In this document: positions 17,373-19,684 of the stretch, piece after piece | How the letters are laid out: each line of letters opens with the position of its first letter | Position numbering within the stretch: position 1 is the stretch's first letter | Sequence record: LR746137 | DNA length: 64,000 bases | Source of the DNA: Escherichia phage vB_EcoM_UP17 | Strand: one strand, 5' to 3' | Made by a program: the position numbers and the translations under genes | Notes under the pieces: model-generated | Database searches by the model: none | What the model was told of the DNA's origin: nothing | The model's input: only the letters and a program-made list of their open reading frames with translations

Positions 17373-17379
17373 ATAACTA

Positions 17380-17409
17380 TTGACAAACGTATCCTTCATA
17401 TGTTAGGAT
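17380..17409 (+). promoter_or_regulatory. sigma70-like promoter (TTGACA, TATGTTAGGAT)
   Basis: ACTATTGACAA followed 13 nt later by TATGTTAGGAT; same composite motif recurs upstream of other tRNA groups. Confidence 0.4.
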
Positions 17410-17619
17410 ACGTTCATCAAGTGTGGTAACAGGGTCGTTGACTTTTGTTAAGAGGGGCTTGCACTGCGGATAGTGTTAGAGACTACTTCTTCAGAGGTTA
17501 GCTACCAAAGAGGAAAAGGAATAGTCTCGGCTCAAGAACTTTTACGCTGAAAGTTGGGCTTGGTCTTAGAGAATGTAGCGGTTCTCTACAATCGTTAGCG
17601 TCTCTGTTACCACATTTAC

Positions 17620-17691
17620 GGCCCTGTAGCTCAATGGGAGAGCTGTCGGCTCATAACCGATAGGTAGCTGGATCGAAACCAGCCAGGGCCA
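17620..17691 (+). tRNA. tRNA-Met (anticodon CAT)
   Basis: Hand-folded cloverleaf: acceptor GGCCCTG/CAGGGCC, anticodon loop CTCATAA, T-arm GCTGG-ATCGAAA-CCAGC, encoded CCA. Confidence 0.7.
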
Positions 17692-17696
17692 CCAAC

Positions 17697-17768
17697 GTCT
17701 TTATGGTGTAATGGATAGCACAGGAGTCTTCTAAACTCTTAGTCAAGGTTCGATTCCTTGTAAAGACA
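17697..17768 (+). tRNA. tRNA-Arg (anticodon TCT)
   Basis: Acceptor GTCTTTA/TAAAGAC, anticodon stem GGAGT/ACTCT with loop CTTCTAA, T-arm CAAGG-TTCGATT-CCTTG, CCA encoded. Confidence 0.7.
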
Positions 17769-17967
17769 CCAGAACATTTTAACATGAATTAGCTCAAGTG
17801 ATTTGAACCCACTACTGATCATAGTGGCAGAGAATGAGGCAAGTATGTCAGACATTGTAAACAAAGGCCACGGTTACATTAGAAGATATAAATGCTCGAA
17901 GAGCACCGTTCGCTGAGAACGGGGGTTGGTGGAGTCACCATTCATGGTAAAATGTTTTAAAAAACTA

Positions 17968-17996
17968 TTGACAACTAACATTATTTTATGTTAGAT
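17968..17996 (+). promoter_or_regulatory. sigma70-like promoter (TTGACA, TATGTTAGAT)
   Basis: AAAACTATTGACAAC followed 13 nt later by TATGTTAGATTATAAG, 10 nt before tRNA-Ser. Confidence 0.45.
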
Positions 17997-18005
17997 TATA
18001 AGTAT

Positions 18006-18093
18006 GGAAGGGCAAATCGACGTGGTGACGAAAACGGTCTTGAAAACCGCCGAGCTTGAAAGAGCCTTGGGAGTTCGACTCTCCCTCCTTCCG
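18006..18093 (+). tRNA. tRNA-Ser (anticodon TGA), class II
   Basis: Acceptor GGAAGGG/TCCTTCC, anticodon loop CTTGAAA, long variable arm, T-arm GGGAG-TTCGACT-CTCCC, CCA encoded. Confidence 0.7.
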
Positions 18094-18101
18094 CCAGATT
18101 A

Positions 18102-18184
18102 GGTAGATTGGTGAAATGGTAGCCACGACAGTTTGCTAAACTGTAGTCGGAAACGGCGTGTAGGTTCGAGTCCTACATCTACCG
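18102..18184 (+). tRNA. tRNA-Ser (anticodon GCT), class II
   Basis: Acceptor GGTAGAT/ATCTACC, anticodon stem ACAGT/ACTGT with loop TTGCTAA, long variable arm, T-arm GTAGG-TTCGAGT-CCTAC. Confidence 0.7.
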
Positions 18185-18314
18185 CCAAGTTGTTTTTAAT
18201 GTAGCGTTGCGGCTACTTACTTTAGCAGAGTAAATCTTCGGCAAGTGGCGGTAACCACTTTACCGATACCGCATAGTCAGTAAGGCGAATACTGGCTACT
18301 TTAAAAACAATTTT

Positions 18315-18395
18315 GTGAGATTGGCAGAGTGGTCGATTGCGGGGGACTGTAAATCCCTTCTGAAAGGCGCGGTGGTTCGAATCCATCATCTCACA
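18315..18395 (+). tRNA. tRNA-Tyr (anticodon GTA), class II
   Basis: Acceptor GTGAGAT/ATCTCAC, anticodon stem GGGGA/TCCCT with loop CTGTAAA, long variable arm, T-arm GGTGG-TTCGAAT-CCATC. Confidence 0.7.
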
Positions 18396-18404
18396 CCAAA
18401 TTAA

Positions 18405-18487
18405 GATGAGTTGGCTGAATGGTTTAAGCGGCGGACTGTTAATCCGTGTTCGAAAGAACGATATAGGTTCAAATCCTATACTCATCG
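18405..18487 (+). tRNA. atypical class II tRNA, anticodon loop CTGTTAA (reads as GTT, Asn) with 15-nt variable arm
   Basis: Acceptor GATGAGT/ACTCATC, anticodon stem GCGGA/TCCGT, variable region GTTCGAAAGAACGAT, T-arm ATAGG-TTCAAAT-CCTAT; isotype assignment uncertain. Confidence 0.5.
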
Positions 18488-18497
18488 CCAGAATTAT

Positions 18498-18575
18498 GGA
18501 CTTGTAGAGTTAAGGTAAAACCTCCAGTCGCCAAGAGGCTTCTGGAATTGCAGGTATCGAATCCTGCCGAGTCCC
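18498..18575 (+). pseudogene. degenerate tRNA-like element
   Basis: Good 7-bp acceptor GGACTTG/CGAGTCC and T-arm GCAGG...CCTGC, but T-loop is 8 nt (TATCGAAT) and no canonical anticodon arm or CCA could be folded. Confidence 0.3.
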
Positions 18576-18581
18576 AGATTT

Positions 18582-18653
18582 GCTCCTATAGTATAATGGC
18601 TATTACAACGGTTTTGTAATCCGTGGATCTCTGTTCGATTCAGAGTGGGAGCA
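18582..18653 (+). tRNA. tRNA-Thr (anticodon TGT)
   Basis: Acceptor GCTCCTA/TGGGAGC, anticodon loop TTTGTAA, T-arm CTCTG-TTCGATT-CAGAG, CCA encoded. Confidence 0.7.
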
Positions 18654-18929
18654 CCAACACAACATTAAGAGCACTGTGATTGATCGTCGTATCCTGTGCA
18701 CAAGGTCTGTTCGAAAGACAGTGTTCTTAGTATTGTGTTGATCACACAAAGAGTCACCTGAAACTTGACCGGAGTAGGGTTGGATGGGGCAAAAGAAGAA
18801 GCGGCTCTCCCATCGACAGCAACGAAGAATAATATTTGACTTTAGTTTTGTATTATTTTAAGTTAGCTTACCGAACGTAGGGCTAGTCACCCAACGGGAT
18901 ACTCGTCACTGTCCCACTCAATAAAACTA

Positions 18930-18959
18930 TTGACAACCAATAGTAAAATGTAGTATAGT
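18930..18959 (+). promoter_or_regulatory. sigma70-like promoter with extended -10 (TTGACA, TGTAGTATAGT)
   Basis: AAAACTATTGACAACC followed 13 nt later by TGTAGTATAGT, 11 nt before tRNA-Gly. Confidence 0.45.
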
Positions 18960-18970
18960 AAAGATGTAGG

Positions 18971-19041
18971 GCGTTCTTGGTGTAGCGGTAGCATTCCGTC
19001 CTTCCAAGTCGGCGGCACGAGTTCGATCCTCGTAGGACGCT
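18971..19041 (+). tRNA. tRNA-Gly (anticodon TCC)
   Basis: Acceptor GCGTTCT/AGGACGC, anticodon loop CTTCCAA, T-arm ACGAG-TTCGATC-CTCGT, CCA encoded. Confidence 0.65.
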
Positions 19042-19142
19042 CCAAATTATTTAATAAAGGGTTGCCAGAAAACTTTCTCTTTTACTCATGGTTTTCTCCT
19101 TCTCTCACACCTCTTCTGGTTGCCCTTCATTAAATGATTTAT

Positions 19143-19215
19143 TGGTTTGTAGTGTAGTCAGGTAGCACACGACACTTTGACTGTCGTAGGTTTGGTTCAA
19201 ATCCAGACAGACCAG
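19143..19215 (+). tRNA. tRNA-Gln (anticodon TTG)
   Basis: U1-A72 acceptor TGGTTTG/CAGACCA (as in enterobacterial tRNA-Gln), anticodon stem CGACA/TGTCG with loop CTTTGAC, T-arm TTTGG-TTCAAAT-CCAGA, CCA encoded. Confidence 0.65.
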
Positions 19216-19223
19216 CCATATAA

Positions 19224-19297
19224 CGGAATTTAGCTCAGTTTGGTAGAGCATACGCTTTGGGAGCGTAGGGTCGCAGGTTCGAATCCTGCAATTCCGA
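19224..19297 (+). tRNA. tRNA-Pro (anticodon TGG)
   Basis: Acceptor CGGAATT/AATTCCG, anticodon stem TACGC/GCGTA with loop TTTGGGA, T-arm GCAGG-TTCGAAT-CCTGC, CCA encoded. Confidence 0.7.
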
Positions 19298-19306
19298 CCA
19301 ATTTAA

Positions 19307-19377
19307 TGTTTCGTAGTTCAATGGTAGAACCCACGACTGATAATCGTGAGACACAAGTTCGATTCTTGTCGAAACAA
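19307..19377 (+). tRNA. tRNA-Ile (anticodon GAT)
   Basis: Acceptor TGTTTCG/CGAAACA, D-stem GTTC/GAAC, anticodon stem CACGA/TCGTG with loop CTGATAA, T-arm ACAAG-TTCGATT-CTTGT, CCA encoded. Confidence 0.65.
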
Positions 19378-19382
19378 CCAGT

Positions 19383-19452
19383 TTCCCGTTAGACTTACAG
19401 GATAAGAGTTCCACAGCTTATTGTGATGCTGGTTCGAATCCAGCACGGGATA
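19383..19452 (+). pseudogene. degenerate tRNA-like element
   Basis: Canonical T-arm GCTGG-TTCGAAT-CCAGC and 6-bp acceptor, but the anticodon region folds as CACAG-CTTA-TTGTG (4-nt loop) and no CCA is encoded. Confidence 0.3.
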
Positions 19453-19458
19453 CATAAT

Positions 19459-19534
19459 AGCGGGATAGAGGAGTCTGGTCGTCCTCGCCAGTTTCATATG
19501 CTGGAGATCATTGGTTCAAATCCAATTCCCGCCT
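19459..19534 (+). tRNA. tRNA with anticodon CAT (Met or lysidine-type Ile2)
   Basis: Acceptor AGCGGGA/TCCCGCC with mismatched 1:72, D-stem GAGG/CCTC, anticodon stem CCAGT/GCTGG with loop TTCATAT, T-arm ATTGG-TTCAAAT-CCAAT, CCA encoded. Confidence 0.6.
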
Positions 19535-19652
19535 CCAAATATCGCTTGCCAGCGGTATCTTTGAAGAACTTGCCTGGTTCCTTCTAAGATGGAGGGGTGC
19601 GACTCCTTAACGCACAATCATAATAAAGCATTTCAAATTAACAGTATTTATT

Positions 19653-19676
19653 GGCCTCCTTATTGGAGGCTTTTTG
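19653..19676 (+). terminator. rho-independent terminator closing the tRNA cluster
   Basis: GGCCTCC-TTATT-GGAGGC hairpin followed by TTTTTGC. Confidence 0.5.
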
Positions 19677-19684
19677 CTATCTAT

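Follow-up and report, generated by a model that had tools for sequence, protein, structure and literature searches.

Phage T4 carries a cluster of tRNA genes for Gln, Leu, Gly, Pro, Ser, Thr, Ile and Arg together with the stable 'species 1 and 2' RNAs; these genes lie close together and are transcribed jointly, host enzymes mature the tRNAs, and structured RNAs other than tRNAs are embedded among them. For such genes two ideas are established: codon supplementation, and escape from defence nucleases by means of tRNAs. Here we examine a tRNA gene cluster in a stretch of 64,000 nucleotides (nt) from Escherichia phage vB_EcoM_UP17 (sequence record LR746137), which as a whole is called the window, and in which an original prediction, made from the sequence alone, had described 12 tRNA genes in three promoter-driven groups. 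Very probably the cluster is the tRNA operon of a virulent, phAPEC8-like coliphage (Phapecoctavirus). It is placed shortly before the terminase and late region and would supply tRNAs for phage codons and, in addition, serve as insurance against host defence. Over 2.5 kilobases (kb) the region shares 98.6% identity with Escherichia phage phAPEC8 (JX561091, 59143-61148), with equal gene set and order, and 69 phage records, nearly all from the genus Phapecoctavirus of the subfamily Stephanstirmvirinae, cover at least 80% of it. In GenBank 11 of these tRNAs are annotated in phAPEC8 and all 12 in ASO2A (MZ726793), where the first CAT tRNA is named Ile-CAT, and the cluster of Mt1B1_P17 is likewise annotated and matches that of the window. 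Since near-identical clusters have been deposited and annotated, the finding as such is already known: the cluster, from which the large terminase gene lies about 1.3 kb downstream, belongs to the annotated features of a well-sampled genus, and as a tRNA cluster it is nothing new. Leads of higher value are a possibly phage-specific tRNA-Asn with a long arm, a series of tRNA-Tyr cassettes and unannotated spacer RNAs.

ARAGORN at default settings found 11 tRNA genes between 17620 and 19537, all on the plus strand, and none elsewhere in the window. The same 11 were recovered with the Rfam model RF00005 at 50.1-72.2 bits, in relation to a gathering score of 29, so scores above the cut-off were obtained for 11 of the 12 predicted genes. 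The twelfth, Ser(TGA), is added on structure and conservation, and with it the predicted number of genes stands. Every anticodon that had been read by hand agrees with the ARAGORN and Rfam calls or, for Ser(TGA), with ARAGORN at a relaxed threshold, and the prediction that all genes encode CCA holds as well, since it was read at the 3' end of 12 of 12 sequences. Variable columns were counted among four genomes, here and below, which are otherwise 95-100% identical; they make up 0-5% of the tRNA genes, with the exception of Tyr (40%). At the relaxed threshold ARAGORN also gave an Arg(tcg) on the minus strand and a Thr(agt) at 18852-18931, which were taken as noise.

The signals around these genes are listed in Table 1. 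The exact 11-mer ACTATTGACAA occurs in 64 kb only at the three putative promoter sites, and when one mismatch is allowed there are 7 matches, a number reached by no shuffle. The hexamers of P1, P2 and P3 agree with the consensus at 10-11 of 12 positions, an extended -10 TG is present in two, and none of the three has a variable column. Predicted starts from P2 and P3 lie 1-5 nt before Ser(TGA) and Gly (1-3 nt in the case of P2), and P1 is followed by a leader of 203 nt. At the other end, the ASO2A record annotates a terminator at the place homologous to the intrinsic terminator of the window. Inside a group 2-7 nt separate one tRNA from the next, and the other gaps are spacers whose 5' and 3' ends pair. 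Three near-identical promoters of the sigma-70 type would feed one co-directional array that ends at a single intrinsic terminator, and from the short gaps and the end-paired spacers it is to be expected that host RNase P and 3'-end enzymes would release the tRNAs, plus discrete spacer RNAs as by-products.

Codon supplementation is the best-supported function of the operon, and codon counts support it well for seven of the tRNAs. When 55 mechanical open reading frames (ORFs; at least 100 amino acids, 16,893 codons, 39% G+C) of the window were set against an E. coli K-12 table, the seven most over-used codons, with phage to E. coli ratios, were ACA (4.5), AGA (3.3), ACT (3.0), TCT (3.0), CCT (3.0), ATA (2.8) and GGA (2.5). 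All seven can be read by the encoded Thr-UGU, Arg-UCU, Ser-UGA, Pro-UGG, Ile2 and Gly-UCC, in accordance with the codon adaptation that the original prediction had invoked. Further ratios are 1.6 for CAA, which is read by Gln-UUG, 1.75 for CCA and 1.5 for TCA. A check with 13 fetched K-12 genes in 25 kb gave ratios in the same direction and smaller. The main job of the array would be to raise the supply of tRNAs for A/U-ending codons, namely Thr-UGU, Arg-UCU, Ile2, Gly-UCC, Ser-UGA, Pro-UGG and Gln-UUG.

Several points weigh against this interpretation. The ORFs counted are not curated genes, and the check on the K-12 table behind the ratios covers only 13 genes. The cognate codons of the tRNAs with G34 (Tyr, Asn, Ser-GCU and Ile-GAU) and of the initiator-like tRNA have ratios of only 0.4-1.2, and because these codons are not rare in E. 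coli, supplementation leaves five of the twelve tRNAs unexplained. A general promoter scan was not above shuffles (10 found and 9.1 expected), and for that reason the evidence for promoters is the shared extended motif and not the scan count. Finally, no terminator on the plus strand was found between the three groups, which may therefore be one read-through unit with internal promoters; as the only terminator follows the last tRNA, the three promoters would feed a single read-through array. Of the predicted 'three promoter-driven groups', the three promoters, which stand ahead of the groups and share the 11-mer, are retained, whereas the groups are not separated by terminators.

Table 1. Features of the tRNA operon in the window and long-arm tRNA-Asn genes in fetched loci (L numbers). 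RF00005, score in bits; z, z-score; sp, spacer; tl, tRNA-like.
Feature	Position	Strand	Basis or remarks
Promoter P1, ACTATTGACAA ... TGTTAGGAT	17376-17409	+	TTGACA, 18 nt, TAGGAT (hexamers 17380-17409)
Structured 203-nt leader	17417-17619	+	ends pair, helix of ~16 base pairs; 1% variable columns
tRNA-Ile2 type, anticodon CAT	17620-17694	+	ARAGORN; RF00005 64.5
tRNA-Arg(TCT)	17697-17771	+	ARAGORN; RF00005 66.3
Spacer sp1	17772-17963	+	ends pair; z = -3.2
Promoter P2	17964-17997	+	TTGACA, 18 nt, TAGATT (hexamers 17968-17997)
tRNA-Ser(TGA), atypical D arm	18006-18096	+	sub-threshold match, cloverleaf, conservation
tRNA-Ser(GCT)	18102-18187	+	ARAGORN; RF00005 56
sp2, structured RNA	18188-18314	+	fills gap from CCA of Ser(GCT) to first base of Tyr; z = -3.6
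tRNA-Tyr(GTA), allele A	18315-18398	+	ARAGORN; RF00005 56.3
tRNA-Asn(GTT), class II-like long variable arm	18405-18490	+	ARAGORN; RF00005 62
tl-A, degenerate tRNA-like	18498-18575	+	7-base-pair acceptor stem, T arm with 8-nt loop, no CCA; z = -4.0
tRNA-Thr(TGT)	18582-18656	+	ARAGORN; RF00005 59.5
Spacer sp3	18657-18925	+	z = -1.3, not significant; 1.8% variable columns
Promoter P3	18926-18959	+	TTGACA, 18 nt, TATAGT (hexamers 18930-18959), 11/12 match
tRNA-Gly(TCC)	18971-19044	+	ARAGORN; RF00005 54
sp4, long imperfect hairpin, CU-rich loop	19045-19142	+	z = -5.1; 0 variable columns
tRNA-Gln(TTG)	19143-19218	+	ARAGORN; RF00005 55
tRNA-Pro(TGG)	19224-19300	+	ARAGORN; RF00005 70.8
tRNA-Ile(GAT)	19307-19380	+	ARAGORN; RF00005 72.2
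tl-B, degenerate tRNA-like	19381-19458	+	T arm GCTGG-TTCGAAT-CCAGC, 6-base-pair acceptor stem, no CCA
Initiator-type CAT tRNA	19459-19537	+	ARAGORN; RF00005 50.1
Trailer sp5	19538-19652	+	8-base-pair hairpin and T-arm-like hairpin; z = -1.4
Intrinsic terminator	19653-19680	+	GGCCTCC-TTATT-GGAGGCT then TTTTTGC (strong hairpin 19653-19671)
Long-arm tRNA-Asn in fetched loci	L004 1501-1585; L005 296-381; L006 279-363; L008 296-380; IMG/VR L010-L129		

The second layer of function would be insurance against host defence directed at tRNAs, and it is best argued for tRNA-Tyr. Together with the spacer upstream of it (22% variable columns) the Tyr gene is the sole hypervariable part of the cluster. In the subfamily there are at least four alleles of Tyr within otherwise near-identical clusters; allele B resembles the T5-like tRNA-Tyr, and GenBank records give it a 'Pseudo' flag. 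Allele A is that of the window and of phAPEC8, while 5 of 10 other Phapecoctavirus loci inspected, which were compared as individual GenBank records, carry B; a full-length match of sp2 plus Tyr of allele A at 95% identity or more was found in only 5 phage records. In every Tyr allele examined the anticodon loop (CTGTAAA) is still that of the host and A73 is kept, and the variable arm is unlike that of E. coli tyrU. In these comparisons tRNA-Tyr behaves as an exchangeable cassette whose variable arm does not resemble the host's. The cassette was compared with those of loci L002 (1517-1604) and L312-L319. A record labelled Pseudomonas phage PsgM04F (OR584014) has a Phapecoctavirus-like tRNA cluster too, and in PsgM04F, phiWec179 and phiWec188 an annotated ORF of 129 nt comes after tRNA-Tyr.

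It has been shown that PtuAB of Retron-Eco7/Septu cuts the variable loop of host tRNA-Tyr, that the tRNA-Tyr of T5 escapes it and that the tRNA-Tyr of T5 and T6 rescues infection (PMC11555353, PMC13096335). The Tyr alleles differ from the host exactly at the PtuAB cut site and could be used as a natural series for escape from Retron-Eco7/Septu. The original prediction had proposed replacement of nuclease-depleted Tyr, Arg, Ser and Gln tRNAs. For Tyr this gains indirect support from the hypervariable cassette and from the variable arm that differs at the PtuAB site, while for Arg, Ser and Gln we have no evidence either way; defence evasion is, on the grounds of these comparisons, plausible for tRNA-Tyr only. 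One could go further and regard the cluster as chiefly anti-defence, a means to replace host tRNAs destroyed by nucleases of the anticodon or the variable loop, such as PtuAB, PrrC, PARIS or colicin-like toxins, with codon matching secondary. This is possible, but we think it doubtful. The exchange of the hypervariable Tyr cassette with T5-like phages, the difference of every examined Tyr variable arm from host tyrU and the experiments on T5 and T6 (PMC11555353, PMC13096335) are in accordance with it, and the phage-specific extra arm of tRNA-Asn could block a nuclease. On the other hand, the anticodon stem-loop of Asn is that of host asnT over 19 nt, the anticodon loops of Tyr and Gly are the host's, seven tRNAs coincide with the strongest differences in codon usage, and no nuclease specific for Asn, Ser, Gln or Arg was tied to these tRNAs. 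The cluster of the window also has no tRNA-Lys, which is present in the relative phi92. It is known that tRNA-Lys is the commonest and best-documented target of such nucleases (PrrC, PARIS). Escape mutations in the anticodon loops of phage tRNAs have been described (PMC10264068), and because the Asn, Tyr and Gly loops match those of the host there is no sign of them here. We prefer to see codon supply as the main function, to which insurance against defence would be added.

The 'atypical class II tRNA' of the original prediction is real, with the anticodon GTT (Asn) and a long variable arm. In textbooks long variable arms are restricted to Leu, Ser, bacterial Tyr and Sec, and a widespread phage-restricted tRNA-Asn with such an arm would be an unexplained exception to the rule. 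The acceptor stem of this tRNA has 7 base pairs (bp), the T stem 5 and the D stem 3 (GCT/AGC), and the discriminator is G73. Its variable region of 15 nt, GTTC-GAAA-GAAC-GAT, contains a 4-bp stem, and so both the stem-loop of more than 10 nt and the 3-bp D stem that define class II are present. A stretch of 19 nt, CGGCGGACTGTTAATCCGT, which covers the anticodon stem-loop and nt 26, is identical to E. coli asnT. The tRNA has the GTT anticodon and the G73 required by E. coli AsnRS. GUU and G73 are the complete known Asn identity set of E. coli and can be transplanted to another tRNA (PMC9976931), and because of this the long-arm tRNA is, by its sequence, most likely an Asn acceptor.

The same design was found in phi92, in T5-like Epseptimavirus and Tequintavirus, in a Proteus Novosibvirus and in a T4-like Karamvirus; the Asn tRNA of Kuttervirus is normal, with 75 nt. 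IMG/VR was searched for Asn anticodon arms that stand too far from the T arm; at least 120 viral contigs matched, and at least 73 unique Asn(GUU) tRNAs, with lengths of 79-91 nt, were obtained from contigs very different from one another. G73 is present in 67 of 74 unique long-arm Asn tRNAs. In the same 74 sequences the variable hairpin has a mean stem of 3.22 bp, in relation to 2.32 +/- 0.075 in shuffles, and GAAA is present in 41 (shuffled mean 6); 35 of 39 GAAA loops are closed by three complementary pairs, in 25 different flank combinations. The dominant geometry of the arm is 0-1 unpaired nt on the 5' side, 3-4 bp and 3-4 unpaired nt on the 3' side. A design with freely covarying stems is spread over Stephanstirmvirinae, T5-like, T4-like, jumbo and many uncultured phages. 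A covariance model (R2) built from the long-arm Asn tRNAs turned out to be a general tRNA detector (498 hits) and was unusable for counting Asn pairs, and the test of hairpins against shuffles took its place. When viral contigs were picked on the anticodon arm only, 103 Asn tRNAs were called among the 120 matches listed, and about 11 of these were long, while in 185,579 species-level cellular genomes the long-arm pattern gave 68 loci, only 17 of them with a long Asn tRNA call. This contrast between phages, where the type is common, and cells, where it is nearly absent, is drawn from one anticodon-arm pattern. In 11 of these 17 loci 7-36 tRNA genes lie within 8 kb. BLAST of the long-arm tRNA-Asn against 5,426 complete E. 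coli genomes gave nothing at E <= 0.01, a search that is uninformative for short shared stretches, and no IMG/VR contig matched an exact 34-nt pattern taken from the tRNA. In the examined stretch of PsgM04F, phiWec179 and phiWec188 an Asn tRNA is neither annotated nor called.

The build of this tRNA raises the question whether SerRS, which reads the arm and ignores the anticodon, charges it with serine, which would place Ser at Asn codons by missense or recoding. The 3-bp D stem, 4-bp variable stem and GAAA cap are indeed like those of the phage's own two Ser tRNAs, and G73 is the discriminator of tRNA-Ser too (PMC9976931). Nevertheless, we consider this highly improbable. Against it stand the complete and transplantable Asn identity set mentioned above (PMC9976931) and the anticodon arm of asnT. 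From the E. coli SerRS set (long arm in Ser orientation, G73 and G2:C71) the tRNA of the window has G73 and an arm, but A2:U71 in place of G2:C71 and another arm geometry, since Ser tRNAs have 1 nt, 4 or more bp and 2 nt. U1:A72, as in asnT, occurs in 43 of the 74 phage long-arm Asn tRNAs, and C2:G71, listed as an antideterminant for E. coli SerRS (PMC9976931), in 29 of 74. It is because of A2:U71, of C2:G71 in many homologues and of the non-Ser geometry that charging by SerRS is unlikely, and we continue to regard the tRNA as an Asn acceptor.

No description of a long-arm phage tRNA-Asn was found in the literature, although older work on T5 was outside this search and absence is unproven. The paper on phage Sf14 only notes its tRNA-Asn-GTT as scoring 'inconsistent isotype', and in the PARIS, Schlafen and eLife anticodon-loop papers there is nothing on Asn or on variable arms. 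It is tempting, although the odds are rather against it, to see here an undescribed and essentially phage-specific architecture, a genuine Asn acceptor with a GAAA-capped mini-hairpin which may protect it against tRNA nucleases or toxins of the host or of a competitor, or let a phage enzyme recognize it as 'self', as part of a wider engineering of tRNAs. Our best guess would be that a nuclease or enzyme which binds tRNAs is either kept off by the arm or uses it to discriminate. Mini-hairpins were also seen in some phage Thr-UGU, Cys, Trp and Glu tRNAs, isotypes whose arm is normally short (in IMG/VR, for example, Thr in L022 and L072, Cys in L059 and L061, Trp in L024 and L066), and long phage Ile(UAU) tRNAs share an AGATT(A/G)G arm motif (L026, L031 and L065). 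If true, the arms of Thr, Cys, Trp and Ile(UAU), together with sp2 beside Tyr, would suggest an unexplored layer of phage tRNA engineering.

Both CAT tRNAs had originally been read simply as CAT, and while this anticodon is right the two are of different types. The determinants of tRNA-Ile2, the lysidine-containing substrate of TilS, are the CAU anticodon, C4:G69 and C5:G68. The first CAT tRNA, with the acceptor stem GGCCCTG/CAGGGCC, has C4:G69 and C5:G68, and Ile-CAT is its tRNAscan-SE label in ASO2A; by these features it is of the Ile2 type and would read AUA. The second, in comparison with the E. coli initiator tRNA, has the bacterial initiator hallmarks A1xC72, G2:C71, C3:G70 and A11:U24, with G10-A11-G12-G13 opposite C22-C23-T24-C25, but lacks the three G:C pairs at 29-31/39-41, where A:T, G:C and T:G are found, and has the odd loop TTCATAT. 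Since the G:C triplet of the anticodon stem is missing, it can be called initiator-like and not a canonical initiator. Two GenBank records flag it as 'Pseudo-CAT'. A side collection of 61 unique phage CAT tRNAs from IMG/VR loci L010-L129 contains 21 with a 1:72 mismatch; 16 of these 21 are without the G:C triplet, and all 12 of the 21 that were read out have G2:C71 and C3:G70 (NGCG... acceptor stem).

Ser(TGA) was missed at default settings by ARAGORN and by RF00005, whose gathering score it does not reach. Its best Rfam match is tRNA-Sec, with 40.1 bits in relation to a cut-off of 47, and ARAGORN reports Ser(tga) only at an 80% threshold (-ps80). However, it has a 7-bp acceptor stem (GGAAGGG/TCCTTCC), the loop CTTGAAA, a 4-bp variable stem with a GAAA cap, the T arm GGGAG-TTCGACT-CTCCC, G73 and CCA. 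One of 90 columns is variable, and tRNAscan-SE gives tRNA-Ser-TGA in ASO2A. When it is aligned with other phage Ser tRNAs, the cloverleaf is kept, and in 12 of the 21 pairs both bases have changed. It is counted here as a tRNA because of its structure and conservation, and not because of its score. As to its alleles, the type in the window has a D arm like that of a T5-like tRNA-Ser (L311 15627-15720), and in phiWec188 (69-158 of L313) and PsgM04F a phi92-type Ser(TGA) is found at the same position.

Two further tRNA-like stretches, tl-A and tl-B, were found only by ARAGORN at the 80% threshold, as Leu(caa) and as a tRNA with a 4-base anticodon (tcca), respectively; tl-A has no Rfam match, and tl-B has 6.4% variable columns, the highest value apart from Tyr and sp2. 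It could be supposed that Ser(TGA), the second CAT tRNA, tl-A and tl-B are all decaying pseudogenes. Ser(TGA) does fail both default callers, GenBank has its 'Pseudo' flags on the second CAT tRNA and on Tyr allele B, tl-A and tl-B appear only at the relaxed threshold, without CCA and with non-canonical loops, and tl-B is comparatively variable. For the four taken together, however, decay is improbable. Ser(TGA) has 1 and the second CAT tRNA 0 variable columns, their acceptor and T arms and CCA are intact, and the second CAT tRNA is not a pseudogene because the type with the 1:72 mismatch recurs among phage CAT tRNAs (21 of 61, with G2:C71 and C3:G70 wherever read). To judge from their sequences, tl-A and tl-B are probably decayed tRNA genes, and for these two the pseudogene reading is the most likely one, while we keep Ser(TGA) as a tRNA and the second CAT tRNA as a recurrent, initiator-like phage type.

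Among the spacers sp2 is the best characterized. It was found in 142 phage records and is annotated in none: in Phapecoctavirus, in Justusliebigvirus, where tRNA-Lys follows, in a subset of Tequintavirus, where it lies directly upstream of tRNA-Tyr, and in a few others. Its length is ~115-133 nt, its identity in the Tequintavirus subset ~79%, and copies were fetched from L004 (1192-1323) and L311 (11688-11803). An alignment of 13 sequences folds into a closing helix and three hairpins with 38 pairs, in which 98.8% of cells are paired and 6 pairs are compensatory, one of them occurring as CG, AU, GC and GU. Slid controls gave no compensatory changes and 39-55% pairing. The hairpin P2 of sp2 is invariant but for two central loop bases (UUAGCAG, UUAAUAG and UUAACAG). 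With a covariance model the plus strand scores 125.8 bits and the minus strand 31.1 bits, and each genome has a single copy. The compensatory pairs and this asymmetry of strands rule out an element acting at the level of DNA, and a decayed tRNA-Lys gene is ruled out by the coexistence of sp2 with tRNA-Lys in phi92. As sp2 is shared with T5-like phages, the 'tRNA regions' of phages encode more than tRNAs.

The second conserved structure is sp4. In phi92-like phages its helix is wholly different yet complementary, while the loop TTTCTCTTTT.CTCATGGTTTTCTCCTTC is conserved (also in L004 2216-2330 and L089). Read on the minus strand, the loop has AAGGAG, a perfect Shine-Dalgarno sequence, 6 nt before ATG, which opens a micro-ORF of 8-12 codons, in the window MSKRESFLATLY. 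A search of the window for a target of the loop in trans gave only its own site. The leader has a minimum free energy of -75.0, in relation to -53.4 +/- 3.9 in shuffles (z = -5.6), and no homologue outside the genus was found for it among the loci compared. None of sp2, sp4 and the leader has a match among 4227 Rfam families, even at E <= 10. The operon carries at least two conserved and unannotated structured RNAs (sp2 and sp4). The trailer sp5 is ~90% identical in phi92-like contigs. A small ORF was noticed in sp1, MSDIVNKGHGYIRRYKCSKSTVR (17845-17916, 23 amino acids), with GAGG 7 nt upstream of its ATG, in a stretch that also forms RNA hairpins. In phAPEC8 and PsgM04F this ORF runs on to 41 amino acids, and its C-terminal half is conserved; in the window and in Mt1B1_P17 it is cut short by a stop codon.

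Comparison with known systems places the cluster as follows. Within the genus, phAPEC8 and ASO2A have a structured insert of 88 nt between Gln and Pro (L001 3419-3511) which the window and Mt1B1_P17 do not have (the site is after window position 19222). In relation to T4, seven of its eight anticodons recur in the window (UUG, UCC, UGG, UGA, UGU, CAU for Ile, and UCU); the window lacks Leu(UAA) and adds Ser-GCU, Tyr, the long-arm Asn, Ile-GAU and the initiator-like tRNA. T5-like phages (Demerecviridae) have ~20 or more tRNAs spread over ~12 kb and interleaved with small ORFs and HNH endonucleases, whereas the window has 12 in 2 kb with almost no ORFs. T5-like phages nevertheless share with this genus the long-arm tRNA-Asn, the sp2 RNA (in the Tequintavirus subset) and a tRNA-Tyr like allele B. 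Serine-accepting 'allo-tRNAs' with non-Ser anticodons also exist, and their acceptor and T stems have 8 and 4 or 9 and 3 bp, as in tRNA-Sec. The Asn tRNA of the window has in common with class II tRNAs a base-paired variable arm and a 3-bp D stem, and it differs from them and from allo-tRNAs in its Asn anticodon and discriminator, in its short arm of 3-4 bp, mostly with a GAAA cap, and in its acceptor and T stems of 7 and 5 bp.

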